A stretch of 64,000 nucleotides of DNA from an uncultured virus (IMG/VR IMGVR_UViG_3300022924_000206) (IMGVR_UViG_3300022924_000206), one strand, 5' to 3'. Numbered from the stretch's first letter, positions 10,953-30,822 are shown. Notes: generated by a model not told the origin, from the letters alone. A program made the numbers and translations.

Positions 10953-11089
10953 GCCGCCTTAGCTCAGTGGTAGAGCACTTCCTTGGTTTCCTCGAAAGAG
11001 GATAAGGCAAGGCCTTAGTTTGGTTAACAGAATAAACGCTGTTAGCCTTGCTAAGGAAGAGGTCGTGGGTTCAAGTCCCACAGGTGGCT
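10953..11089 (+). tRNA. tRNA-Thr(GGU) with 65-nt insertion in the anticodon loop
   Basis: Removing 10987-11051 gives a canonical 72-nt tRNA with CTTCC-TTGGTAA-GGAAG arm. Confidence 0.8.
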
Positions 11090-16265: not shown

Positions 16266-16370
16266 ACAGAAATAGCTCAATGGTAGAGCACGGCCACTAA
16301 GGCCGGGTATAAGCAAGATATAGTGTTGCAAATCACTTTAAAAGCGCAGGTTCGATTCCTGTTTTCTGTA
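16266..16370 (+). ncRNA. tRNA-like RNA, 5-nt loop centred on CUA, long variable region
   Basis: ACAGAAA/TTTCTGT acceptor, CGGCC-ACTAA-GGCCG arm, T arm. Confidence 0.55.
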
Positions 16371-16573: not shown

Positions 16574-16645
16574 GCTTCCATAGCTCAATGGTAGAGCAGG
16601 ACATTCTAAACGTTCGTGTTCTCGGTTCGAGTCCGGGTGGAGGCG
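16574..16645 (+). tRNA. amber suppressor tRNA (CUA)
   Basis: Canonical spacing puts CTA at 34-36 in loop TTCTAAA; A31-C39 mismatch. Confidence 0.8.
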
Positions 16646-16650
16646 CTTAT

Positions 16651-16722: not shown

Positions 16723-17010
16723 CGGCGTTACCAGTAGAACGCGCCGGGGCCACTACGAAGGTTCTCTAACATCGGCTGATGAAGGCATTAATCATGGGTT
16801 CGTAGCTCATCTTTTGCTGGAAATTCTGGAAAAACCGGATTGGTATCCGGGGTAAGAAGTGGAGTTCGAGTCTCCGAGACGTTCGGTTCGATCCCGGGCG
16901 ACGAGCGTAGGAACGCACTTACCACATGGGCTGTGGTCAACCAGGGTGTAGGTTGCTAGCCGAGCGAAGCTGGTTCGAGTCCAGTACAGTCCACACCGCG
17001 GACGGTAACC

Positions 17011-17232
17011 GAAGAGGAAGCCGGTCATCAACGAATCAGTACGGGCTTGCCGTGGGCTTGAGGCTGATCGTAGCAGTTTTAGCCGACGTTACAGGCAAAA
17101 ACCGAGGGTTGCGTCTCGATAACGCTCCTGTTTAGGCAGCTTGGGCATCTGGAGAGTCCAAGGTTTTAGCTTCGGCTATCTCGCGGAACCTGCCAAGAGT
17201 TCCGCTTGTGGGTTCGAACCCCATCCTTTTCA
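17011..17232 (+). ncRNA. 222-nt RNA closed by acceptor-like stem and T arm
   Basis: GAAGAGG/CCTTTTC + A, T arm GTGGGTTCGAACCCCAT. Confidence 0.4.
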
Positions 17233-17446
17233 CAGTCATTGTAAGACCGTTCGATTCGGTCGCTGGTTGAAGTGAGCTCGGGTTTCTTCCTCCAGTGTTT
17301 GGCACTGAGGCGGTTCGAGTCCGCAACTATACCGAGCTAGTAAGGGTATCCTCAATAGGTCGCGCAACCGCAATGACTCAAGCCGTCGTATCTTTCTGAG
17401 ATAAGCTTATTTCATAAGCTGTTAGTTCGCTCTAGCCGACGGCACC

Positions 17447-17672
17447 GATGTTAGGAGGTTGGCCTAGAAGCAGCCATCCTTTAAAGAGTCGCGAGTGGGA
17501 AATCGTTGGCAAAGGCCCACACCTAGAGCTTCGGGGTAAGTTCCCTCGAAGGAATGCCAAATAGCGAGTAACAGAGGCGTGCCAACAAATCTGTGAAATG
17601 TAACGAGTGTAAGGACCGCTCGGCTTGGATATACTTGGGTTAGAGCGTTTAGCGTAATAGCACACTACCATC
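17447..17672 (+). ncRNA. 23S rRNA H43/H44 (GTPase-associated centre) mimic with insert, copy 1
   Basis: AGGAGGTTGGCCTAGAAGCAGCCATCCTTTAAAGAGT + 162 nt + GCGTAATAGCACACT, closed by GATG/CATC. Confidence 0.75.
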
Positions 17673-17849
17673 AATCTTTCGAAGATCTTCGGATGCTTCT
17701 AAGACTCAAAGTCTAAGAAAGAACAAGAGGCGTGCCTGAAGCGCCCGTCCCGCTTTCCATACCATTCATATTGGAGATAGTGCGGGTAGGATAGGTGTAG
17801 TGAAGAATGGGATCTACACTGGCCAGGCATATTTTTGTAAGGAGCATGA

Positions 17850-18017
17850 TTGTTACTAACCACAGAAGAAATAAAAATTTTAGATGATTCAATTCTAGAT
17901 TGGGACGAAAGAAACCCCACGAAGTTGTGTCTTTTCCCTGGCTGTGAAAATGCTCATAAAGCTAGAGGCCTTTGCTCAAGTCACTATAGTAAAGCTCGCT
18001 CACTGGGCTTCGTTTGA
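17850..18017 (+). CDS. small Cys/His zinc-finger-like protein (not in ORF track)
   Basis: AAGGAG RBS, TTG start, 55 aa with CLFPGC...ARGLCSSHY. Confidence 0.6.
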   Translation: MLLTTEEIKILDDSILDWDERNPTKLCLFPGCENAHKARGLCSSHYSKARSLGFV

Positions 18018-18050
18018 AATTTTAGTAATGACAAAATCAAAGGGAATCAT

Positions 18051-18593
18051 ATGAGACTTTGGACACTTCAACCAAATGAAGTAGCTGAAAAACTACTTGC
18101 AGGTGAAACTTTCATTTGTGATCCTAAACTCTCATCTTTTGCCGATGATGAAGCTTTCAATAATGCTTATGAGTGGCTCGTTGAGCGAATGGAGTTAAAA
18201 ACTCCTAAACCAGAAAATGTAACTTGGCCAGTTTGGGCTTGGCATACTAATTATGGGGCTCAAATGAAGCCGGATCGTCGTAGACAAATGTATAGCTCCT
18301 ACGATCAATTAGATGCAATCTTAGAAATCGAAATACCGGACGATGAAGTCATTCTTTCAGATTTCGATGATTGGCACTGCGTACTCAATAATTTTGCCAT
18401 AATGAGCGATGAAGAGTACGAGAACTGGGAAGAGAAAGATAAATGGGATTGCCCTGTCTACACCGATGAGTACAAGCTCAACTCCTGGGAAAAAGTTTTT
18501 AGAAGTGATGGAGAGTTCGTTCAAGCATGTTTTTGGATGATAAAACCGGAACACTTAGTTAAAGTACACAAGCTTAGGAAGAGGTCACAATGA
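18051..18593 (+). CDS. DUF3841-like protein
   Basis: LWTLQ, AYEWL, PVWAW, LSDFDDWHCVLN, QACFW motifs. Confidence 0.75.
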   Translation: MRLWTLQPNEVAEKLLAGETFICDPKLSSFADDEAFNNAYEWLVERMELKTPKPENVTWPVWAWHTNYGAQMKPDRRRQMYSSYDQLDAILEIEIPDDEVILSDFDDWHCVLNNFAIMSDEEYENWEEKDKWDCPVYTDEYKLNSWEKVFRSDGEFVQACFWMIKPEHLVKVHKLRKRSQ

Positions 18594-18928
18594 TTTGTTT
18601 GGCTTGCGGAAAAGATTTACAGGCGGATAGTGTCAATCCTGACACTGAGTATCAGTTTGACAATGCACTTTGGATTGGTTTCTTCGGCGGCTACGGTATG
18701 TTCGTAGACGACATAGATGTATCCTGGGGCGGCGCAGAGAGAACTTTGGCTGGAGCGGCACACGAGGCGGTTATCTGCCACGAGTGTGCTCACGAGCTTT
18801 GTGCCACGGTTCCTTGGATCGAAAAGCTTTTAAAGCCCCTAAAGAGCCACGCTCATACCCTTTCCTTCTGGGAGGCTAATCCCGACCACGAAGGTTGGGA
18901 TAAACCGAAGGAGAAAGACAATGGCTGA
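18590..18928 (+). CDS. hypothetical CxxC-containing protein
   Basis: ATGA overlap, two CxxC pairs. Confidence 0.75.
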   Translation: MICLACGKDLQADSVNPDTEYQFDNALWIGFFGGYGMFVDDIDVSWGGAERTLAGAAHEAVICHECAHELCATVPWIEKLLKPLKSHAHTLSFWEANPDHEGWDKPKEKDNG

Positions 18929-19139
18929 AATCGAAGAGACTTTCGAAATTGTTTTAATCAATCCCGAGACCAATGAGCCTTATGACAAGGACGATCCCAT
19001 CGTTCTGTCTAAGGAGGATTACGATTTCATCGCCAACGAAGCAGAAAAGAAAGGCCTCACTTTCGAGGAGGAATTTCTTCACCTGGTTCGTGAGGGGCTT
19101 AAAACGCTCACTGAGCGTGATGCAAGGGATGTTACCTAA
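18921..19139 (+). CDS. small acidic hypothetical protein
   Basis: AAGGAG RBS, overlaps upstream stop. Confidence 0.7.
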   Translation: MAEIEETFEIVLINPETNEPYDKDDPIVLSKEDYDFIANEAEKKGLTFEEEFLHLVREGLKTLTERDARDVT

Positions 19140-19155
19140 GCGTTATCAAAAAGTT

Positions 19156-19195
19156 TTGACAGAGGTTGCATAATGTCGTAGCCTTGTGTTATAGT
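19156..19195 (+). promoter_or_regulatory. sigma-70-like promoter(s) for the large ncRNA
   Basis: TTGACA-17-TAGCCT and TTGCAT-18-TATAGT. Confidence 0.55.
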
Positions 19196-19200
19196 AGAAC

Positions 19201-20013
19201 TACTGAATCAAACGACAAACCTTCGGGTGAGGCGGGAGATGAAGTAACTCCGGCATGACGGATAAACCAAGGCAACTTGGGGAAAGGGATTCCTGACAGG
19301 ATCCCGCCTGAAAAGGCAAATCATGCACTTCACAAGATTCAGCAATCGTCGCCAAAAAGGCGGTTGCCATGTGAAAAGGTAGTTGGATCAAAGGCCGAAC
19401 TTGGTGGAGATCTGAAACGGGTAACTTGCTCGCTAAAAACAACATATGCTGACTCTCATGTTTTTGTGGAAGGTGTTTAGTCCGAGGCTTGGCGGCCAAG
19501 GGCGGATGCCATAGAAAGGGAATCGGGACGAAGGTTTCGAGGAACTGAAAGAAGCGTAAGTAGTCGCCAACGAAAGCGCTTGAGGAAGTGGAGCATTTCT
19601 TAGCCCGAAAGGGAGAGGAAACTTCGAGGAGGAGCACTTCCCGCGTCAAAAACCTAACTCAATTGGCAGAGTGCCTCCCTATTAAGGAGGAAGTTGCAGG
19701 TTCAAACCCTGTGGTTTCTAAAAGCAAAAGCCTTCTCCAGTAGATAAGCAAAAGCGCCCTAATCCCTGGCTCTTCGGAGAACCAGGGCGAAGGATGGCCG
19801 CAAGCCTGAATTTGTTGGTAGTCGAATGTAACGCAACTCAGTGGGTAGCTCCTAATGAGTGAGTGAAAAGACGCCGAGCAGCTGTCTACTTATGGAATAG
19901 TCAACCTAAATGACCGGGCGTGGATGATAGCATGGGTAACATGCTGGATCAGGAAGCTAATAAATACGGCTTCTGAAGTCATCCAAGTGAGGCTGTAATC
20001 TCAGGCCACACCA
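19201..20013 (+). ncRNA. ~810-nt structured RNA, GOLLD-like, with embedded tRNA
   Basis: No credible ORF, many tetraloop hairpins, own promoter and terminator, internal tRNA. Confidence 0.55.
19648..19720 (+). tRNA. embedded tRNA-like element, anticodon AUU (Asn)
   Basis: CCTCC-CTATTAA-GGAGG arm, D and T arms, weak acceptor. Confidence 0.6.
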
Positions 20014-20020
20014 AAAACTT

Positions 20021-20061
20021 CGAATGGTCTCCTAACTTCGGTTAGGAGACCATTCGTATTT
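20021..20061 (+). terminator. intrinsic terminator
   Basis: CGAATGGTCTCCTAAC-TTCG-GTTAGGAGACCATTCG then TATTT. Confidence 0.8.
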
Positions 20062-20082
20062 AACAATCCTAGGGAGAAAGTA

Positions 20083-20298
20083 ATGGCAAAGAGATTTTCC
20101 GTCTCAGAGAGCGAAGGTTCTCAGCGGTCATATTCATATCTTTTAGAAGATAAAGATCTTCCTCTAGGTATTTTCACCGACAACAATGCTCCGGATGAAA
20201 TCAACTGGGAGTTAGAGTCACTTGGACAAAGTGACTATGCTCCAATGTTTCTCTGGGAGCCTGACGGTAACCTCATTTATGAGGTAAAAGAAGCTTGA
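20083..20298 (+). CDS. hypothetical protein
   Basis: GGAG RBS, 71 aa. Confidence 0.65.
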   Translation: MAKRFSVSESEGSQRSYSYLLEDKDLPLGIFTDNNAPDEINWELESLGQSDYAPMFLWEPDGNLIYEVKEA

Positions 20299-20307
20299 GT
20301 GCTTCAT

Positions 20308-20381
20308 CGGGGTGTGGGGCAGCTTGGTAGCCTGCTTGATTCGGATTCAAGAGGTCGCAGGTTCAAATCCTGCCATCCCGA
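20308..20381 (+). tRNA. tRNA-Pro(CGG)
   Basis: Cloverleaf, loop TTCGGAT. Confidence 0.93.
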
Positions 20382-20399
20382 CTTATAGAAGGAGATAAA

Positions 20400-21188
20400 A
20401 TGGTTGAGTACGCCGGAATTCGTAATGTTTTCAGAGAAATAGAAAACTTTGACGAAAACAAGCCAATTATCTTTATGGATGTTGACGGAGTTATAAACGC
20501 TCTTCCCTTTGATCGTGAATGGGTTGGGCCAGAAATTCCACCTGAAACCGGACTTTATGATCCGATCTATTACGATCCAAACAATTGGAAAACTGTTCGT
20601 ATAGAACATAATCCCGAGCTACACTATCCTATTAGTAAGGAACTCACGGTAGATTTTGATCGCATGCTCGATTATCCTAAAGAATACACAGATAATTTAG
20701 ATGAACAGCAAGCAGAGAAACGCTATAAGAAGCTTCGTATAAACCTCATGGAGGAAATGCTAGCTGAACTACGAGAAATAGTTGAAGAATATGACCTCCA
20801 GGTCATTTATCTGACCTATTGGCGCTCTGAAGCCCTTAGGCTTTTAGAGCCGGAACTTCAACTCGGAGCTACTGCTTATCTGGATTGGCGAACTAATTCT
20901 GATCTCGGTCACAAGATGAAAATTCATGCTATCCATGCACTCTATGAAGAGACCAATATTAGAACTCCTTTCATAGTTTTGGATGATGAATCCACGGCGG
21001 GGCTCCACGATGACAGTGTTCTCTGGCAGGTGAACCCTATATTTGCGGATAAATATCCTGAGCGAACTCTTCAGTTTGGAGAGCTTAATAAGATTCCTAA
21101 ATTGATCTTCCAACAGGATGCTCGTTGGGGAATCGAAAGAGCTCATCTCGCTAAGATTAGAGAGTTTGCAAAATCACTCAAAGCATGA
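20400..21188 (+). CDS. HAD phosphatase (Swiss-Army-knife RNA-repair HAD-like)
   Basis: FMDVDGVIN motif I, TYW motif II, VLDD motif IV. Confidence 0.7.
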   Translation: MVEYAGIRNVFREIENFDENKPIIFMDVDGVINALPFDREWVGPEIPPETGLYDPIYYDPNNWKTVRIEHNPELHYPISKELTVDFDRMLDYPKEYTDNLDEQQAEKRYKKLRINLMEEMLAELREIVEEYDLQVIYLTYWRSEALRLLEPELQLGATAYLDWRTNSDLGHKMKIHAIHALYEETNIRTPFIVLDDESTAGLHDDSVLWQVNPIFADKYPERTLQFGELNKIPKLIFQQDARWGIERAHLAKIREFAKSLKA

Positions 21189-21206
21189 TAGGGTCATGCT
21201 ATAACT

Positions 21207-21448
21207 AAAAAGAGGTACCTGCGGAACGCTACTGGCCTTCGGGCTGGAGGAAACTCCGGACACCTTGACAATCCTCGTGTGGAAGACTTCGGTCATTGAC
21301 CACAAAGCTGCCCTAATAAGGCGGGTGATAGAGGCTCGGGTGCAACTCAAAACAGTTCTAGGATCTTGTCATCCTTTGATGAACGGGTATGGGGCATAGA
21401 TTGATCGCGTTCTAAAACAGAATCCGGGTTATGGCAGGTACCTCTTTT
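21207..21448 (+). ncRNA. rnpB: compact RNase P RNA
   Basis: P1 AAGAGGTACCTGC/GCAGGTACCTCTT; CR-I GAGGAAACTCCGGAC; CR-V ACAGAATCCGGGTTAT. Confidence 0.85.
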
Positions 21449-21583
21449 AGTTTACTAACCTCCGCACTTGTCGGCGTCTATTACGCCACAGGAACGCGGA
21501 GGTTTCGCTGTAACAGCCGAAATCAATTGGCTTGAACAACGTCACACAAAACCTACGCCGTGGCTTAGATCGCCGTGTAGCGT

Positions 21584-21656
21584 GCCACCTTAGCTCAGTT
21601 GGTAGAGCAGCTATTTCGTAAGTAGCAGGTCGCCGGTTCGATTCCGGCAGGTGGCT
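21584..21656 (+). tRNA. tRNA-Thr(CGU)
   Basis: Cloverleaf, loop TTCGTAA. Confidence 0.95.
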
Positions 21657-21658
21657 CG

Positions 21659-21887
21659 GATGTTTGGGAGGTTGGCTTAGAAGCAGCAATCCTTTAAAGA
21701 GTCCGGAATGCGTTGAAGTTGCCTACAAATACGCATACCTTACGGCGGTGAGCCAAGGAATCACCGCGAGGCCCCAGTAACGAGTAGACTCCGATGGCAA
21801 TCGAGAGACGAAGGGAAAGCGGGTTGGTCACCTGCGACGGGGATTTACGAAGGTCAGACGGTTTAGCGTAATAGCACACCACTCATC
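21659..21887 (+). ncRNA. 23S rRNA H43/H44 mimic with insert, copy 2
   Basis: GGGAGGTTGGCTTAGAAGCAGCAATCCTTTAAAGAGT + 163 nt + GCGTAATAGCACACC, closed by GATG/CATC. Confidence 0.75.
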
Positions 21888-21953
21888 TCAATTTTGATAA
21901 AACAACTTACTTGTATTTCGCAAGCGGCAGAGCTATCTAAAGGAGAGGCGAAA

Positions 21954-22256
21954 GTGAAGAACTTACCAGCACCGAGCAAAATGCCGGTACTCCCATCACC
22001 TGAAGAGCTCAAGAGTTTTCCGGATCCGGGAGCTCGTTTTGAGCAGTGGTCGAAGGACTGTGACCACATCATGGAGCTCAACGATGAGCTATTTGAAAAA
22101 GCTCTCAAAAGAATGAAATGGTGCTCATTCCTCAACGGAATGCTAAACCGACCTCTCACCGAACATTTCGCCTGGTGTCCCCACAATGATTGGGATGCGT
22201 ATTGGCAGGAGCTCGGCTGGCCGGAGTTGCCTCAAATGACCTCCACGGGGCTCTAA
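21954..22256 (+). CDS. hypothetical protein
   Basis: AAGGAGAGG RBS before GTG. Confidence 0.6.
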   Translation: MKNLPAPSKMPVLPSPEELKSFPDPGARFEQWSKDCDHIMELNDELFEKALKRMKWCSFLNGMLNRPLTEHFAWCPHNDWDAYWQELGWPELPQMTSTGL

Positions 22257-22317: not shown

Positions 22318-23118
22318 ATGAGCTCCTCTTTCGACATTGCAACAATTAATCCTTTACGGATATTGGTGGTCGGGGATTGGCATAGGAACATTCACGCCGC
22401 ATTTCCTAAAAAAGTGGTCGCCTATGCTAAAAGCATAGGTATCGAAGTAATCCTCCACGTGGGAGACTTCGGCTATAAGTACGGCGTCAGGGGGAATGAT
22501 GCTTACATGTTTGAAAAACCTCTCCATCGCGCTCTTCAGGAGGCTGGCATTCAACTTGTTTGGGTGGATGGTAACCATGAGAACCATGAATATTTGAGAG
22601 CTCTTCCTCTACTACCAAATGGTTTCGCTCAAACCGGAGCTAGAGGAAACATCTATTACGCTCCCCGCGGACTCCGCTGGCAATGGAGTGGAAGAACTTT
22701 CGGTGCCCTCGGCGGCGCATTGTCAATCAATGCTGCGCGCCTACAGGAGGGTGTTACTCTTTTCGCCGATTTAGAGGAACCCACCTACGAAGATCTCGAC
22801 AAACTAGGTAAAGATAAGTTAGATTATCTTGTTTGTCACGATGTACCCATGAGAGTAGCCTTGAAATCTATTTTTGGGGTACCGGTTAAAAGTGAAACAC
22901 GAATTGTTTTGCAGAAAGCCGTGGATACTTTGAAACCTGAAAGAGTTTTTTCGGGTCATTGGCATCAGCGTAGCGATTTCCGTATTCCTAGAGATGATGA
23001 TGGGGAAACCTTTGGTCACATCTTGGATAAGGAATTCACAGTTGGTAATATACTTATTCTTAACCTCGAAGACAACACCATTGAAAACCCTCCGGCCAAT
23101 TGGCAAGAGCAAAACTAA
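22318..23118 (+). CDS. calcineurin-like metallophosphoesterase
   Basis: GDWH, GDFG, GNHE, GHWH motifs. Confidence 0.9.
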   Translation: MSSSFDIATINPLRILVVGDWHRNIHAAFPKKVVAYAKSIGIEVILHVGDFGYKYGVRGNDAYMFEKPLHRALQEAGIQLVWVDGNHENHEYLRALPLLPNGFAQTGARGNIYYAPRGLRWQWSGRTFGALGGALSINAARLQEGVTLFADLEEPTYEDLDKLGKDKLDYLVCHDVPMRVALKSIFGVPVKSETRIVLQKAVDTLKPERVFSGHWHQRSDFRIPRDDDGETFGHILDKEFTVGNILILNLEDNTIENPPANWQEQN

Positions 23119-25477: not shown

Positions 25478-26923
25478 ATGACTGCAGAGTTTATTCATCT
25501 TCATGTCCACTCTGACAACAGCATGCTCGACGGTTTCTCTAAGCCTGTAGAATACCTCGAAGCTGCCCACAAGATGGGTATGAAGGGTATCGGTATTACT
25601 GACCACGGAAATACTCACGGTGCCTACGCTCTAGTCAATCAGGCTAAGAAGTTCGATATGACCGGAATTCCCGGTTGTGAGTTCTATGTTGCGCCAGCTA
25701 ACCCTCAAGGTGCTCGAGTGAAAGAGCCGGTCTATTATGGGCCGGGAGGACAGAAGGCCGGCGGAAACGATGTTTCCGGTTCAGGAGCTTATCTTCACCT
25801 TACAATCTGGGCTTATAACCAGGAGGGGATGCACAATCTCTTCAAGCTTTCAACACTTTCCAACCAGCCTGAGAACTTCTACATGAAGCCGCGTATCGAC
25901 TTCGATATGCTAGCTGAGCACTCCGGTGGGCTCATCGTCTCAACTGGATGTCCGTCCGGTGAAATTTCAACCCGTTTCCTTCTTGGACAGGACAAGCTAG
26001 CTTACGAATACGCTGGACGCCTAAAAGACATTTTTGGGGAGCGTCTTTTCGTAGAGATCATGGATCACTCCATGGATATTGAACTCGAGCGCTCACTTCT
26101 ACCAAAGCAGCTTGAGATGTCAAAGAAGCTAGGTATTCCTCTTCTCGCTACAAACGATGCTCACTATGCTCACAAGCATGATGCTATTCACCACGAAGAA
26201 ATGCTTGCATCCCAGTCCGGTTCACGTATGACAGAGCCGACCTGGGATAACGGCGGCTCTCGATTTGCTTTCAATGGTACCGAGTACTACCTCAAAACCG
26301 CTGAAGAGATGGCCGCAATTTTCCCTGAGAAAGATTTCCCAGGAGCAACGAAAAACACTTTGCTAATCGCTGAGATGACTCAGGATATGCAACTTGACTT
26401 CAATCCTGATCTCATGCCTAACCCCATTCTTCCTCCGGAGTTTACGGATGAAGTCGAGTATTACAAACATCTAATCAATGTGGGATTCAAGGACCGTTAC
26501 GGAAACTCTCCTCGAGAAATCAAAGAGGAAGCTCTTCGTAGGATCAAGTTTGAGATGGAAGTTATCCACTCATCTAACTTCATTGGTTACATGCTCACGG
26601 TTCACGAGTACCTCTGGTGGACTCGAGAAAAATTCTCTACTCGTGATGCTAGCGGAACTATTCTCGCTCCGGCCATCGGAATTGGTCGAGGTTCCATCGG
26701 AGGAAGTATCCACGCCTACTGCCTATATATTTCCGAGATTGATCCCATCCGTTGGGACACTATTTTTGAGAGATTCCTGTCAGCTGGTCGAGGAAACACC
26801 TATAGAATTGATTACGACGATGGAACTTTCGAAGAGATCATTGTTTCTGCGGAGAAGGAACTAACCTCCGGGGACAAACGTTACATTCATCAGCTCCACG
26901 TTGGTGACGAGATTGTAGACTAA
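25478..26923 (+). CDS. dnaE: DNA polymerase III alpha, N-terminal part (PHP + palm start)
   Basis: HLHVHS, ITDHG, TNDAHY, GRGS, FERFL. Confidence 0.93.
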   Translation: MTAEFIHLHVHSDNSMLDGFSKPVEYLEAAHKMGMKGIGITDHGNTHGAYALVNQAKKFDMTGIPGCEFYVAPANPQGARVKEPVYYGPGGQKAGGNDVSGSGAYLHLTIWAYNQEGMHNLFKLSTLSNQPENFYMKPRIDFDMLAEHSGGLIVSTGCPSGEISTRFLLGQDKLAYEYAGRLKDIFGERLFVEIMDHSMDIELERSLLPKQLEMSKKLGIPLLATNDAHYAHKHDAIHHEEMLASQSGSRMTEPTWDNGGSRFAFNGTEYYLKTAEEMAAIFPEKDFPGATKNTLLIAEMTQDMQLDFNPDLMPNPILPPEFTDEVEYYKHLINVGFKDRYGNSPREIKEEALRRIKFEMEVIHSSNFIGYMLTVHEYLWWTREKFSTRDASGTILAPAIGIGRGSIGGSIHAYCLYISEIDPIRWDTIFERFLSAGRGNTYRIDYDDGTFEEIIVSAEKELTSGDKRYIHQLHVGDEIVD

Positions 26924-26999: not shown

Positions 27000-28073
27000 A
27001 TGGCAGAGCAACACTTGGAGCTTTACAAGCTTTACCGTCCCAAAAACTGGAGAGGTCTCATTGGCCAGGATAAAGTTGTAAAGTCGCTTAAGGGTGCAGT
27101 CGCCGCAGGAAAGGTTCCTACCGCCTACGCTTTCATCGGTGAGCGCGGTTGTGGAAAGACTTCAGCAGCTTTGATTCTTGCAAAAGCAATCAACTGTCTA
27201 AACCCTTCAGAAGGGGATCCCTGCAACGAATGTGATGTTTGCAAGAACATCGACAACGGCGCACAGATCGGAATCAATTACATCTCCATGGCTAACAAAG
27301 GCTCCGTGGATGACATTCGAGAGATTGCTCAGCAGGCTCGCCTCGCTACTCCGCTAAATCGTCAGGTTTGGATTCTCGATGAGTTCCACAACCTTTCAAA
27401 GCAAGCGTTCGATGCTCTTCTTATTCCTCTAGAAGATCCAAGAATGCCTTCACTGTTCATTCTTTGCTCCACCGAGGTTAACAAGATTCCTCAGACCATC
27501 ATGTCTCGTGTACAGTCTCGTAAATTCTCCCTCGTCGGGGAAGAAATTATGACGAAGTATGTTAAGGCTGTCTTGAAGAAAGAGCAGCTTGAACTCGATG
27601 ACGAGAGCATTGCTTCGGTCATTCGCATGGGACGCGGTTCAGTTCGTGACACCCTCACGGCTCTAGAGCGAGTCAACGAGACCGGGGAAACCTTTGCAAA
27701 CTATGGAGGTAGACTTCTAGAGGCTTTCGCAAGCCAGAACCTAGGTGATTCACTCTCCGTAATCGCTGAAGCCTCTGCCGAGGATGAAGTAAAGGGACGC
27801 GAGCTCGCTGAACAGCTCTTTGAGGATCTTAGGGATCTACTTCTAGCCGCGGCCGGAGCCGATCCAAAGCTTTACCCTAATCTTCCAATCGAAGATCCCA
27901 AAGAGGTTGCTAAGAGCATGTTCGGTGTTCGTGGAATTTCCATCGCTCTCGATGAGCTCGGGGATGCATTAACTCGCATGACTCTAGGCGCAGATACTCG
28001 AGTTCACCTCGAGGTTGCCATTGTCCGTACTCTACAGAAAATGAAGCAGCTTCAAGCTCGTTTGGCTAAGTGA
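27000..28073 (+). CDS. dnaX: clamp loader gamma/tau subunit
   Basis: YRP, GERGCGKT Walker A, Cys zinc module, DEFH Walker B. Confidence 0.93.
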   Translation: MAEQHLELYKLYRPKNWRGLIGQDKVVKSLKGAVAAGKVPTAYAFIGERGCGKTSAALILAKAINCLNPSEGDPCNECDVCKNIDNGAQIGINYISMANKGSVDDIREIAQQARLATPLNRQVWILDEFHNLSKQAFDALLIPLEDPRMPSLFILCSTEVNKIPQTIMSRVQSRKFSLVGEEIMTKYVKAVLKKEQLELDDESIASVIRMGRGSVRDTLTALERVNETGETFANYGGRLLEAFASQNLGDSLSVIAEASAEDEVKGRELAEQLFEDLRDLLLAAAGADPKLYPNLPIEDPKEVAKSMFGVRGISIALDELGDALTRMTLGADTRVHLEVAIVRTLQKMKQLQARLAK

Positions 28074-28083
28074 GGCGTAAGTT

Positions 28084-30822
28084 ATGTCTAAAAAAATCGT
28101 CTCAATTCAGGTTATCAAGCCTGGTTCAAACCCCGATGTTGACTCCGACTTCAACACGAAAGCTCGCGAGCACGCGGTTAATCACGTAAAAGAGCTCCAC
28201 GGCGCAGGAAACGTAGCCTCCATCGGTACGTTCTCTACATTGGCCGCTAAAGGTTCGTTCAAGACCATGTGTACTCTTTACGAGATCCCTTTCGCTCAGG
28301 CTAACAAGATCTCCGACCTTATCCCCTCCGGTGGTGAAGGTGGAGATATTACAATCGCTGACATTTACGATACGCGAAGTGACTTCTATACGGCTTCAGC
28401 TGATTTCCGATCAGCCACCGCCGGTGAAGAGTGGGAAAAGATCATGGAGGGAGCGAAAGCTCTCGAGGGTAGGAACAAAACCACAGGAGTTCACCCTTGT
28501 GGAATCGTTATTTCTTCGCGTCCACTTTTAGACACTGTGCCTCTTCAAGTTCGACAAGATGACGGCCTTGTGGTGACTCAGTGGGGTTATGCTGAGCTCG
28601 AATCTCTCGGACTGATCAAGATGGACTTCCTCGGTTTGGATACCGTGGACCTCATTCAGCACACCATTGAGAACATCATGGTTTCTGGTAAAGTTGTCCC
28701 TAACATGCTTGACATAATCAATGGTTCTATGGATGACAAGAAAACCATTGATATGATCGCTCGCGGTGAGACGATTGGATTATTTCAACTCGCCGGTGAG
28801 GGCGTTCAAGATCTTCTAAAGCGAATCAAGCCTACTTCCGTTCACGACATTATTGCCACAACCGCTTTGTACCGCCCGGGTCCCATGGGTGTTCAATCTC
28901 ACATTCGCTACGCTGATCGAAAGAACGGTAAGGAAGAGGTTGACTTCATCCACGACGACTTCAAGGGTACTGCCATTGAGGAAATTCTAGGGTCAACTTA
29001 CGGTTTGGTTGTTTACCAAGAGCAGATCATTCGTATTGCTAACCAGATCGCCGGTATGACCCTCCAGGAGGGTGATGACCTCCGTAAAGCCATGGGTAAG
29101 AAGATCATGGCTAAGATGCTTGCGATGAAGCCAAAATTTATGGAAGGTGGAGCCGCTAAGGGCTATTCCAATGAAGCCATGGAGCTTCTCTGGAACACCT
29201 GTGAAGAGTTCGCTAAGTACGGATTCAACTTGGCTCACTCGGTAGCCTACGGTATCAACGCTTACCAGACAGCATATCTAAAAGCCAATTATCCGGTTGA
29301 GTTCATGGCAGCGCTTATCGCTCAGAACGTGGGAAACAAGAACAAAGTTCTTACCTTCCTCCAGGAGGCTCGCCGCATGGGACTCAAGGTTGGTTCTGTG
29401 AATGTGAACATTTCGCAGAGCCGAGTGACCCCGGACTTTACCCGCGCTTCAGGTTTCGACATCGTTTATGGTTTCGATGGGCTCAAGGGTGTCTCGAAAG
29501 ATATTGCTGAAATCATCATCACCGAACGAGACAAGAACGGTGAGTTCGTTTCAGTTCAAGACATGATTAACCGTTGCCTACCGAAGGGCGTAGCTAACCG
29601 TAGAGTTTACGAAGCCATCGCTAAGGCCGGCGGTTTCGATCTTTTCGGTGTCTCTAGAAAAGCAGTTGTGGAAAACCTAAATGGTCTTCTCTCTGCATCG
29701 AAGACTAAAGAGGCAAAGGGCGCTTCACTGTTCGACATTTTCGGTGAAGCAGATGTGATGGAATCATCCTCCATCGACCTCAAAGGTCAGGAGGAGTTTC
29801 CTCACGTTGTCAAGCTAAAGCTAGAGGCAGACATTGTGGGCCTTTACCTAACCGGGCATCCGCTAGAAAAAGCTGGCCCTGGTTTGTCAAAAGCTCGTAC
29901 GGCAACCATCGCCACCTTGGTGAAAGCTCAGCAGATGACTACGGCGACTCTGACCGTAGCTATTACGGAAATCATCAAGAAGCCCATGCGTAAAGGTGGA
30001 AAATCAGTGATGGTTACTCTCGATGACGGCACTGGTTACATTACGGCCAATGTCTCTAGAGAGCTAGTCAAGGGTATGGATAAATTCACCGCCCAGGAGC
30101 GCATTCGTAAGCTCTACATTGACGGGGAAACACAGATTCCCGAAGATATGGAAGAGATGGCTCTTTCCAGCGAATTCGTTGCTCTTCCGGATATTGAACA
30201 AAACTCTGTCTATGTGGTGAGCATAACTTTCCGTCCGTCAAGAGGAGAGTCACCTTACGGAGCTAGAGTCAACGGTATAGTCCCTCTAGCTCTAGCTGAT
30301 GATGGTTCACTTCCAATTCGTATGAGAATCCTCTACAACGATTCAACGGAGGAAAAAGCGAAAGAACTCGCTAATAAACTGCCTCGAGCTATCGCTAGTC
30401 GTAATCCTGGAGATTTCCCTATTTATCTCTCGTTGGCTCCAAAGAGTGGATCAAATGCTGCTGAAGATGAGTCAACTTATCGTGCAGCCATTGAGGAAAT
30501 TCGCTCAGCTGACAAAAAGAGTGACATCGCTGTAGCGGCAGCTGACAATACTAATCTCTGGGGTGGTGCAGATACCCGTAAGAAAAAGGTTACGGTGAGT
30601 ACCGAAGGAAAGCGAAGCTGGCCTCCGGTTACTCCTGCTAGGCCTAAGGGTCCTCGACCTGGAGTTCTACTCAATGAAGACGAAGTAATCAGAAATCTGA
30701 TCTATGTAGACACCGGTTACAGAGCGGCGAAGACAAAGAAGACAGAGCTTGATATTGAAAAATATCTTGGAGTAGAATCCTACGATTATGGAATATTTGA
30801 TTCAGCCGTTTTGGAGGACTAA
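28084..30822 (+). CDS. dnaE: DNA polymerase III alpha, C-terminal part
   Basis: PDVDSDF, HPCG, KMDFLGL, LYRPGP, YGFNLAHS. Confidence 0.93.
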   Translation: MSKKIVSIQVIKPGSNPDVDSDFNTKAREHAVNHVKELHGAGNVASIGTFSTLAAKGSFKTMCTLYEIPFAQANKISDLIPSGGEGGDITIADIYDTRSDFYTASADFRSATAGEEWEKIMEGAKALEGRNKTTGVHPCGIVISSRPLLDTVPLQVRQDDGLVVTQWGYAELESLGLIKMDFLGLDTVDLIQHTIENIMVSGKVVPNMLDIINGSMDDKKTIDMIARGETIGLFQLAGEGVQDLLKRIKPTSVHDIIATTALYRPGPMGVQSHIRYADRKNGKEEVDFIHDDFKGTAIEEILGSTYGLVVYQEQIIRIANQIAGMTLQEGDDLRKAMGKKIMAKMLAMKPKFMEGGAAKGYSNEAMELLWNTCEEFAKYGFNLAHSVAYGINAYQTAYLKANYPVEFMAALIAQNVGNKNKVLTFLQEARRMGLKVGSVNVNISQSRVTPDFTRASGFDIVYGFDGLKGVSKDIAEIIITERDKNGEFVSVQDMINRCLPKGVANRRVYEAIAKAGGFDLFGVSRKAVVENLNGLLSASKTKEAKGASLFDIFGEADVMESSSIDLKGQEEFPHVVKLKLEADIVGLYLTGHPLEKAGPGLSKARTATIATLVKAQQMTTATLTVAITEIIKKPMRKGGKSVMVTLDDGTGYITANVSRELVKGMDKFTAQERIRKLYIDGETQIPEDMEEMALSSEFVALPDIEQNSVYVVSITFRPSRGESPYGARVNGIVPLALADDGSLPIRMRILYNDSTEEKAKELANKLPRAIASRNPGDFPIYLSLAPKSGSNAAEDESTYRAAIEEIRSADKKSDIAVAAADNTNLWGGADTRKKKVTVSTEGKRSWPPVTPARPKGPRPGVLLNEDEVIRNLIYVDTGYRAAKTKKTELDIEKYLGVESYDYGIFDSAVLED

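Follow-up and report, generated by a model that had tools for sequence, protein, structure and literature searches.

A phage non-coding RNA family resembling the GTPase-associated centre of 23S rRNA

Why would a virus carry, away from any ribosomal RNA gene, two copies of one of the best-studied centres of the ribosome? The question is raised by a 64,000-nucleotide (nt) stretch of DNA from an uncultured virus (IMG/VR IMGVR_UViG_3300022924_000206), below called the window, which stems from a very large phage. It contains two paralogous non-coding RNA genes, copy A (17447-17674) and copy B (21660-21888). Each of them rebuilds the tip of helix H42 together with H43 and H44 of 23S rRNA, i.e., the GTPase-associated centre (GAC; E. 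coli positions 1051-1108), to which uL11 and thiostrepton bind and which translational GTPases contact. In both copies, the domain is interrupted between 1090 and 1091 by a folded insert of 158 nt (A) or 159 nt (B) and a UUUA linker, amounting to 162 and 163 nt with the linker included. We know of no virus that encodes a free-standing copy of an rRNA functional centre. As described below, the two genes belong to a conserved phage non-coding RNA family that is large and far from any described RNA class.

E. coli numbering was anchored on a Salmonella 23S record (L320), and the residue names in PMC2952862 agree with it. The elements and their parts are listed here with the scores of covariance model R1, which was built from 25 diverse relatives with the window excluded.

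17447..17674, + strand: copy A, whole element; R1 80.8 bits, E 2.8e-19, full-length to model positions 1-158
17447..17489, + strand: copy A, 5' part; closing strand (GATG..), H43 with 9-nt loop, 1082-1086 mini-hairpin, G1087-U1090
17490..17647, + strand: copy A, insert of 158 nt; 3-bp base stem CGC/GCG, k-turn-like GA...UUA-GA signature, then several helices
17648..17651, + strand: copy A, UUUA linker from the insert to G1091
17652..17672, + strand: copy A, 3' part; H44 upper stem and loop, A1101-C1104, closing strand (..CATC)
21660..21888, + strand: copy B, whole element; R1 69.4 bits, E 2.4e-16
21659..21702, + strand: copy B, 5' part; closing strand, H43, 1082-1086 mini-hairpin, G1087-U1090
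21703..21861, + strand: copy B, insert of 159 nt; base stem CCG/CGG, k-turn-like GA...UCA-GA signature, multi-helix fold common with A
21862..21865, + strand: copy B, UUUA linker
21866..21887, + strand: copy B, 3' part; H44 upper stem and loop, closing strand

A preliminary description, made from the sequence alone, had reported both GAC halves and the inserts of 162 and 163 nt at these sites, and the sequence and pattern matches bear this out. The 36-nt 5' half (equivalent to G1055-U1090) was found in the window at 17454-17489 and 21667-21702, and the 19-nt 3' half with the linker at 17647-17665 and 21861-21879; for each half, these two matches compare with 0.00 expected from 100 dinucleotide shuffles. 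Also present, as described earlier, are a GATG/CATC closing helix that each copy has of its own, the equivalents of A1067 and A1095 and a U1090-A1101 pair. In copy A, U1090 corresponds to 17489, G1091-C1104 to 17652-17665, A1067 to 17466 and A1095 to 17656; the respective positions in copy B are 21702, 21866-21879, 21679 and 21870. The two copies share 78% identity per alignment column, with nearly identical cores and inserts that are about half identical. Both have C/C-G at the 1072/(1092-1099) base triple, and the H43 pairing conforms in both.

The earlier statement that no other rRNA lies nearby was likewise confirmed, as Rfam at its gathering threshold found no rRNA in the 64-kb window. 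With permissive settings, the bacterial large subunit model (LSU_rRNA_bacteria, RF02541; gathering score 50) matched only 17456-17480 (19.1 bits) and 21668-21715 (24.7 bits). A contiguous bacterial large subunit rRNA gene is hence ruled out, because these matches are local and sub-threshold and the window holds no further rRNA. Single-sequence folds of the two copies were no better than those of shuffled sequences (z 0.07 and 0.31), a measure that is uninformative where a fold depends on tertiary contacts.

Members and fold of the family

A blastn search with copy A against 50,697 phage records gave matches in unannotated intergenic DNA of the cultured phages CBB, GAP32, XacN1, RSP15, Aeromonas 4_4572, Astolliot, Milchi, Pd_22F, pf16 and UNO-G1W1; the same search also matched genuine 23S genes in contaminant-like records. 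Matches to both halves were seen in pf16, a phage of Pseudomonas putida, and in UNO-G1W1, a phage of P. fluorescens. All four cultured-phage loci that were inspected (CBB, XacN1, RSP15 and Astolliot) have the split design, Astolliot with two copies. Judged by eye, a near-consensus promoter lies about 35 nt upstream of the RSP15 copy, and the XacN1 copy is directly followed by a stem-loop and then a U-run. In viral contigs, two pattern scans for the 3' junction, to which real rRNA gives no match, returned at least 119 and at least 118 loci. Among 247 motif matches, 61 had no recognisable 5' half within 580 nt, and the remainder yielded 164 unique full elements; all counts out of 164 given below refer to these unique elements among the viral-scan matches listed. 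Their linker reads TTTG in 145 and TTTA in 19 cases, TTTR having been fixed by the patterns.

Among cellular genomes (one per species, 185,579 species) the first pattern found 79 matches, and only 33 of these are full elements, the others being chance matches within coding genes. The full elements reside mostly on contigs of metagenome-assembled genomes, plus three Clostridia isolates, and are probably prophages or binned phage contigs. The matches of a plasmid search were all genuine 23S genes.

Model R1 recognised exactly two places in the window, namely copies A and B. Five carrier phage genomes yielded one or two copies each, and a real 23S GAC scored 55.3 bits. The window copies carry all the features that define the family, that is, the closing stem, the GAC core, the insert at 1090/1091 with its base stem and the UUUR linker. 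No family in Rfam 15 covers them or any other member examined. With at least 164 unique elements in viral contigs, the earlier impression of an unrecognised phage non-coding RNA family thus holds. Full-text literature searches, which had most subscription journals outside their reach, found no published description of such an RNA. The stable RNAs rnaC and rnaD of phage T4 were considered as members and rejected (best R1 match 9.6 bits).

The ends of these RNAs fold into a self-closed copy of the 23S GAC comprising the H42 tip, H43 and H44, tertiary contacts included, as comparative sequence analysis shows. In the 25-member alignment, 95.1% of the cells at canonical GAC pairs and the insert-base stem can pair, compared with 69.8% in shuffled alignments, and none of 500 shuffles reached the observed value. 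The covariation score was 0.687 vs 0.183 after shuffling and 0.11-0.18 with partners slid by one to three columns. Compensatory changes were seen in 16 of 23 pairs, so that covariation among homologs, one of the checks named in the preliminary description, is present.

Column statistics by rRNA position were obtained from 134 elements with canonical spacing. The 1058-1080 pair is canonical in 100% of them with six pair types, compared with 43% after shuffling, and the H43 pairs 1057-1059/1079-1081 and 1062-1064/1074-1076 around the 9-nt loop are canonical in 97-100%. The closing stem is 81-100% paired vs about 42% when shuffled. At the 1082-1086 pair of the junction mini-hairpin, U-A occurs 89 times, C-G 23 times, A-U 18 times and other combinations four times; PMC2952862 gives U-A for E. 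coli and C-G for H. marismortui. Positions that do not engage in Watson-Crick pairs in rRNA are kept as well, with U1060, A1077, A1085 and A1088 each at 100%, and so is 1056.A1103. The H44 pairs 1087-1102, 1090-1101 and 1091-1100 and the hexaloop 1093-1098 are found in every element, though they were mostly fixed by the patterns; independent of the patterns, the same pairs and hexaloop are present in the blast-found copies of CBB, XacN1, RSP15 and Astolliot.

Tertiary contacts are seen most clearly at the base triple 1072/(1092-1099), with position 1072 left free in the search patterns. Among the 164 elements, C/C-G occurs 92 times, U/U-A 65 times, U/U.G five times and C/U-A twice. In E. coli, the contact of residue 1072 with the 1092-1099 pair is known (PMC2952862). 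The triple switches inside clusters of near-identical inserts (L001/L059 vs L169/L182, also clusters 1, 4 and 9) and hence arose several times independently. The equivalent of A1067, by comparison, varies, with A in 118, G in 40, C in three and U in three of the 164. About 37 nt of the 5' half match real rRNA without a difference. The family signature G1089/U1090/A1101, in turn, is unlike enterobacterial rRNA (Salmonella record), even in enterobacterial phages. The base-triple statistics are new here, as are the constancy of the core rather than the insert and the hairpin module of the longest members, which are described in the following section.

The insert and the sarcin-ricin module

The site of the insert is constant, and in 153 of 164 elements the two ends of the insert pair with each other over at least three bases. 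All four insert-base pairs covary in the 25-sequence alignment. Together with the joint fold of the two window inserts described below, this agrees with the earlier view of a structured insert at a fixed point of H44. Beyond its base, the insert is highly variable, ranging from 32 to 365 nt (median 158) and falling into 112 blast clusters among 164 inserts. Copies without any insert are rare. An insert-less pattern gave three matches, one of them genuine 23S rRNA and two of them free-standing GAC copies. The first of these copies (L324, 145-248) is an isolated H42-H44 domain of 104 nt in a 34.7-kb viral contig and matches positions 1071-1173 of the large subunit model with 72 bits; the second (L323, 177-239, - strand) is diverged and self-closed, measures about 63 nt and has a U/U-A triple. 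Exact matches to an insert-less copy with the family A1101 signature numbered zero. The variable inserts and the rare insert-less copies make the GAC core the constant part of the family. The core is presumably also the functional part, and the inserts of the window copies may be a structural arm.

A single conserved insertion site after a U, with G before G1091 in 145 of 164 elements, superficially resembles a group I splice site. The elements might hence be debris, either captured fragments of rRNA genes or mini-exons flanking a mobile intron or intervening sequence. We consider this barely credible. Debris is not expected to show extensive compensatory covariation and closing stems that are specific for each element, the window contains no further rRNA, and the family signature differs from host-type rRNA. 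Rfam found no group I or group II intron at E <=10 in the window region 17200-22100 or at E <=5 in four phage loci (L001-L004), nor any other sign of an intron or ribozyme in these regions. A group I intron is further disfavoured by the A that precedes G1091 in both window copies and by inserts as short as 32-40 nt. In a catalogue of 23S rRNA insertion sites of Candidate Phyla Radiation (CPR) bacteria (PMC11270868), the main text mentions neither 1090 and 1091 nor H44, while the positions of its sites 23IS1-5 are given in a supplementary figure.

Both window inserts have a k-turn-like base, consisting of a 3-bp stem, GA and, further on, a 3-nt bulge, GA and a further 3-bp stem. The same signature occurs in 31 of 164 elements and 17 of 112 clusters, with a null rate of 0.0003. 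It is a sequence signature, and the partner strand of the C-helix is not adjacent, so that it would be the junction form of the motif. In phages with two copies, one copy may be long and of the k-turn type with a U/U-A triple and the other short with C/C-G. This pattern was observed in Astolliot (L003, 1165-1480 and 1494-1672) and in a 182.9-kb viral contig (L078).

A joint fold of the A and B inserts has several common helices. Of its 49 predicted pairs, 20 changed on both sides with pairing kept, and in one hairpin six of seven pairs are compensatory. Coming from two sequences, this fold is no more than suggestive. Neither nhmmer (A, B or an A+B profile against all collected loci) nor a metagenome pattern scan, with two chance matches lacking a GAC, found further relatives of the window inserts, and the insert fold hence rests on the comparison of A with B. 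One may ask, therefore, whether the insert is the working part, for example a set of protein- or RNA-binding arms, and the GAC fold only a compact nuclease-resistant end that caps it. Inserts that are folded and lineage-specific, the pairs maintained between A and B, the k-turn-like base and recurrent insert classes with common motifs would all fit such a scaffold. We nevertheless regard it as improbable. A cap would have no need of positions dispensable to folding or of about 37 nt of exact rRNA sequence. The core is near-invariant, the inserts form 112 unrelated clusters of anything between a 32-nt hairpin and 365 nt, and insert-less copies occur.

In the longest relatives, a look-alike of a second rRNA element was found inside the insert, namely of the other part of the ribosome that GTPases contact. 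The 8-mer ACGAGAGG occurs in five unrelated insert clusters vs 0.2 expected. Its context is GUACGAGAGGA in a hairpin of 7-8 bp with stems that covary between lineages, which is the sequence and setting of the sarcin-ricin loop (SRL; 23S helix H95); the Salmonella 23S record contains this core as well. A strict SRL descriptor, i.e., an S-turn GUA...GA around a C-G-closed GNRA tetraloop inside a stem, matched 10 of 164 elements (null 0.115 elements). All ten have inserts of at least 300 nt, of which there are 17 in total, whereas the descriptor is absent from all 147 shorter ones, both window inserts among them. The carriers are L008 (insert at about 205-245), L019, L027, L033, L038, L184, L036, L131, L042 and L053. 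A looser 14-mer match was obtained in 18 of 164 elements vs a null of 1.3. The SRL look-alike hairpins sit in inserts of 310-353 nt; looser forms are found in L135, L186, L139, L148 and L160, with two SRL-like motifs each in L135 and L186. L139, L148 and L160 have lost the GNRA tip (GTACAAGCGGA). Only one 10- to 11-mer of 23S rRNA, the SRL core GTACGAGAGGA, is common to two or more independent insert clusters (four clusters). Insert k-mers compared with the Salmonella 23S record gave nothing above the null over the whole set, and the other insert motifs have no likeness to 23S rRNA.

The presence of SRL copies in the longest relatives favours a mimic of the factor-binding site over a reading by uL11 alone. 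The RNA could bind EF-G, EF-Tu, IF2 or their relatives (or RelA) directly, short forms through the GAC alone and long forms through GAC and SRL together, and thereby retune or throttle host translation or the stringent response. GAC and SRL jointly form the factor-binding centre (PMC2330231 and PMC8661411), and an isolated 27-nt SRL RNA binds IF2 and EF-G according to PMC3496166. Recurrence of the SRL core in independent clusters within a covarying hairpin, and its enrichment in the long inserts, argue in the same direction. We keep direct factor capture as a strong rival reading, as we do a role of enzymes that target this site, but still think it unlikely, as the SRL is missing from every insert below 300 nt, A1067 is variable and the GNRA tip is lost in three long forms. 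Isolated rRNA fragments, moreover, have modest affinity for factors.

Proposed function

From its conserved fold, the RNA might be an off-ribosome imitation or decoy of the GAC that binds uL11 and/or the factors that dock at this site. We favour this reading tentatively and would not put it beyond a fair possibility. Host uL11 would be the most likely direct partner; we rank it first because the determinants of the tertiary fold are fixed while A1067 varies. PMC6239185 states that L11 binding requires the GAC tertiary fold, that the GAC folds autonomously and that A1067 makes no contribution to the fold. A uL11 domain was not found in five carrier phage records, with a control search positive in 14 of 14 reference genomes, and any uL11 partner would thus have to be the host's.

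Mechanistically, the RNA would act off the ribosome as a molecular imitation of the GAC and be bound by host uL11, whose C-terminal domain recognises exactly this tertiary fold. Either the RNA or an RNA-uL11 complex might then compete with ribosomes for whatever docks at the GAC. The outcome could be less uL11-dependent signalling, e.g., RelA activation, or a capture of translational GTPases. In the longest members, the added SRL hairpin would complete the factor-binding site, while the insert of the window copies would serve as a structural arm and not as the functional core.

Several points weigh against such a uL11-centred decoy. uL11 makes no contact with the SRL, and what the long forms suggest is hence a factor or enzyme able to recognise both elements, not uL11 alone; at the same time, SRL-like motifs occur in only 10 (strict) to 18 (loose) of 164 elements and in neither window copy. 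Most cellular uL11 is ribosome-bound, so that a sponge would have to be very abundant. The search patterns fixed 1091, 1093-1096, 1098, 1100-1104 and the linker (TTTR), and invariance at these positions is not evidence. As G1089/U1090/A1101 differs from host-type rRNA, the RNA is not tuned to the sequence of its host. Finally, A1067 is in contact with factors and thiopeptides, but only 118 of 164 elements have an A at the equivalent position, which weakens a GTPase decoy for all members. For the same reason, a thiopeptide sponge is unlikely as a general role. It had been named in the preliminary description among the possible decoy functions; of these, the thiopeptide part does not stand as a general explanation. 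A platform for the uL10/bL12 stalk is unlikely too, since the H42-like stem, although covarying, is a generic helix in which no features are conserved.

RNAs that imitate an rRNA protein-binding site outside the ribosome are known from the mRNA leaders of L10, L1 and L20. These leaders, however, act in cis upstream of ribosomal protein genes and imitate rRNA loosely, whereas the phage RNA is a stand-alone gene in tRNA arrays that reproduces a whole tertiary domain, and no Rfam leader family matches it. An autoregulatory leader was rejected on the grounds that no ribosomal protein gene lies nearby (no such domain in 51 window open reading frames scanned), that no neighbouring protein recurs and that the five carriers have no uL11 gene. 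With the 23S GAC itself, the phage RNA has in common the helices, loops, 1082-1086 mini-hairpin, non-Watson-Crick positions and 1072/(1092-1099) triple. It differs in being free-standing with its own closing stem outside any rRNA gene, in its split at 1090/1091 by the insert and UUUR linker, in G1089 and U1090-A1101 and in the variable A1067.

The closest analogy may be to the fragments used to study the ribosome in pieces, such as the GAC 58-60-mer and the 27-nt SRL RNA, of which the phage RNAs resemble natural versions; the fragments are laboratory constructs, while the phage RNAs are natural genes with an added arm. The GAC 58-mer binds uL11 in isolation. We know of no earlier description of GAC and SRL joined in one natural RNA. 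In its proposed mode, an abundant RNA that titrates a ligand by imitating a cellular binding site, the family is reminiscent of 6S RNA, a mimic of the open promoter, and of CsrB, although target and fold are different and the ligand of the phage RNA is putative.

In its widest form, the proposal would be that phages across many host phyla build off-ribosome replicas of the docking site of translational GTPases, with the GAC alone or GAC plus SRL in the longest forms, which capture uL11, translational GTPases or RelA or absorb weapons aimed at this site. We regard this generalisation as doubtful, if conceivable. If binding of uL11 or of factors proved true, it would represent a new viral way to manipulate translation or the stringent response and a natural version of the classical isolated-domain experiments. 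Viral control could then extend to elongation, the stringent response or ribosome-directed defence. In the long GAC plus SRL forms, one would have a natural model, of minimal size, for the GTPase-activating site. For RNA engineering, it is of use that the variable arm, always at the one site, marks a point at which the GAC fold accepts large additions.

Genomic surroundings

The family is widespread in phages with tRNA arrays, cultured ones among them. A tRNA was found within 3 kb in 21 of 29 scanned genome loci, i.e., the 32 genome loci with a full element minus three contigs of 555-2182 nt. Six loci lie in arrays of 10-27 tRNAs, and two have a tmRNA as well. No neighbouring protein family recurs across the 32 loci. 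In the window, Rfam found about 50 tRNA genes on the + strand, a tmRNA, an SRP RNA and, between the two copies, a GOLLD RNA at 19581-20007. GOLLD and ROOL are large structured phage or prophage RNAs that lie beside tRNAs and thus share the genomic habitat of the present family, but they have no sequence or structure likeness to it and do not imitate rRNA. Among the window proteins are a split Pol III alpha, a clamp loader, a CCA-adding enzyme, a ribonucleotide reductase (RNR), two ClpP genes and SerRS. The gene directly upstream of copy B is:

21584..21657, + strand: tRNA-Thr(CGT), 3' end 2-3 nt before the start of copy B

This arrangement suggests co-transcription and ends formed by tRNA processing. 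Since phage tRNA arrays harbour the genes in the same orientation as the tRNAs, joint synthesis and trimming with the tRNAs is probable. Consensus scans around the copies found sigma-70-type promoters and intrinsic terminators not above chance (2 vs 5.5 expected and 6 vs 5.9, respectively), which fits co-transcription. Contigs from four metatranscriptome runs aligned at 17453-17489 and 21667-21709, where the 5' half is identical to real rRNA; they continue as ordinary 23S rRNA and hence are not phage RNA. The insert regions were uncovered in these four runs, a result that is neutral as to expression.

Just upstream of tRNA-Thr and copy B lies a compact RNase P-like RNA of 231 nt (21213-21443), which matched the archaeal RNase P model with 67.7 bits (E 9.6e-18), below the gathering score of 84. 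Two protein genes near the copies encode HAD_SAK_2 (20400-21188) and a metallophosphoesterase (22318-23118). Both are of an RNA-repair type, and the XacN1 copy adjoins a gene annotated as 2'-5' RNA ligase. Together with the position beside tRNA arrays, these neighbours might suggest that the free copy acts as a lightning rod. Host or competitor enzymes that target the GAC (or SRL) for modification or cleavage, for example ADP-ribosyltransferases, methyltransferases or ribotoxin-like nucleases, would be absorbed by it, and the ribosomes that the phage needs would be spared. We rate this as rather improbable. No repair gene is consistently linked across loci, and we know of no defence system aimed at the GAC. 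According to PMC8661411, the bacterial toxin Tre23 ADP-ribosylates H44 at 1095-1098, which would be in favour of such a role; however, it is active only on translating ribosomes and not on purified 23S rRNA, so that a naked decoy would be useless against it.

Some further observations concern the RNA genes of the window and of other carriers. A tRNA with a CTA anticodon, which reads TAG and is labelled 'Pyl' by ARAGORN, lies inside the tRNA array at 16574-16646. CTA-anticodon tRNAs are also present in two carrier loci (L249 and L286) and a TTA-anticodon tRNA in a third (L315), which hints at suppressed or recoded stop codons in these phages. Two tRNA genes with long inserts inside them gave Rfam tRNA matches of 137 nt (10953-11089) and 105 nt (16266-16370). 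A 480-nt stretch close upstream of copy A (16850-17330), in which neither ARAGORN nor Rfam called a tRNA, holds at least six T-arm-like hairpins of the GGTTCGAnnCC type (e.g., at about 16860, 16886, 16973, 17211, 17249 and 17311); it could be an unrecognised structured RNA or a set of degenerate tRNA-like units. The DNA polymerase III alpha subunit is split into a PHP/N-terminal gene (25478-26923) and a finger/HhH gene (28084-30819), with the clamp-loader gene (27000-28070) between them. The GOLLD RNA (171.8 bits) holds an embedded tRNA-Asn(ATT) at 19648-19720. RNA-library contigs from three studies match this region with zero differences, at 19260-19877 (X6), 19456-19606 (X13) and 19725-20009 (X14), and the phage or a near-identical relative thus appears in metatranscriptomes.

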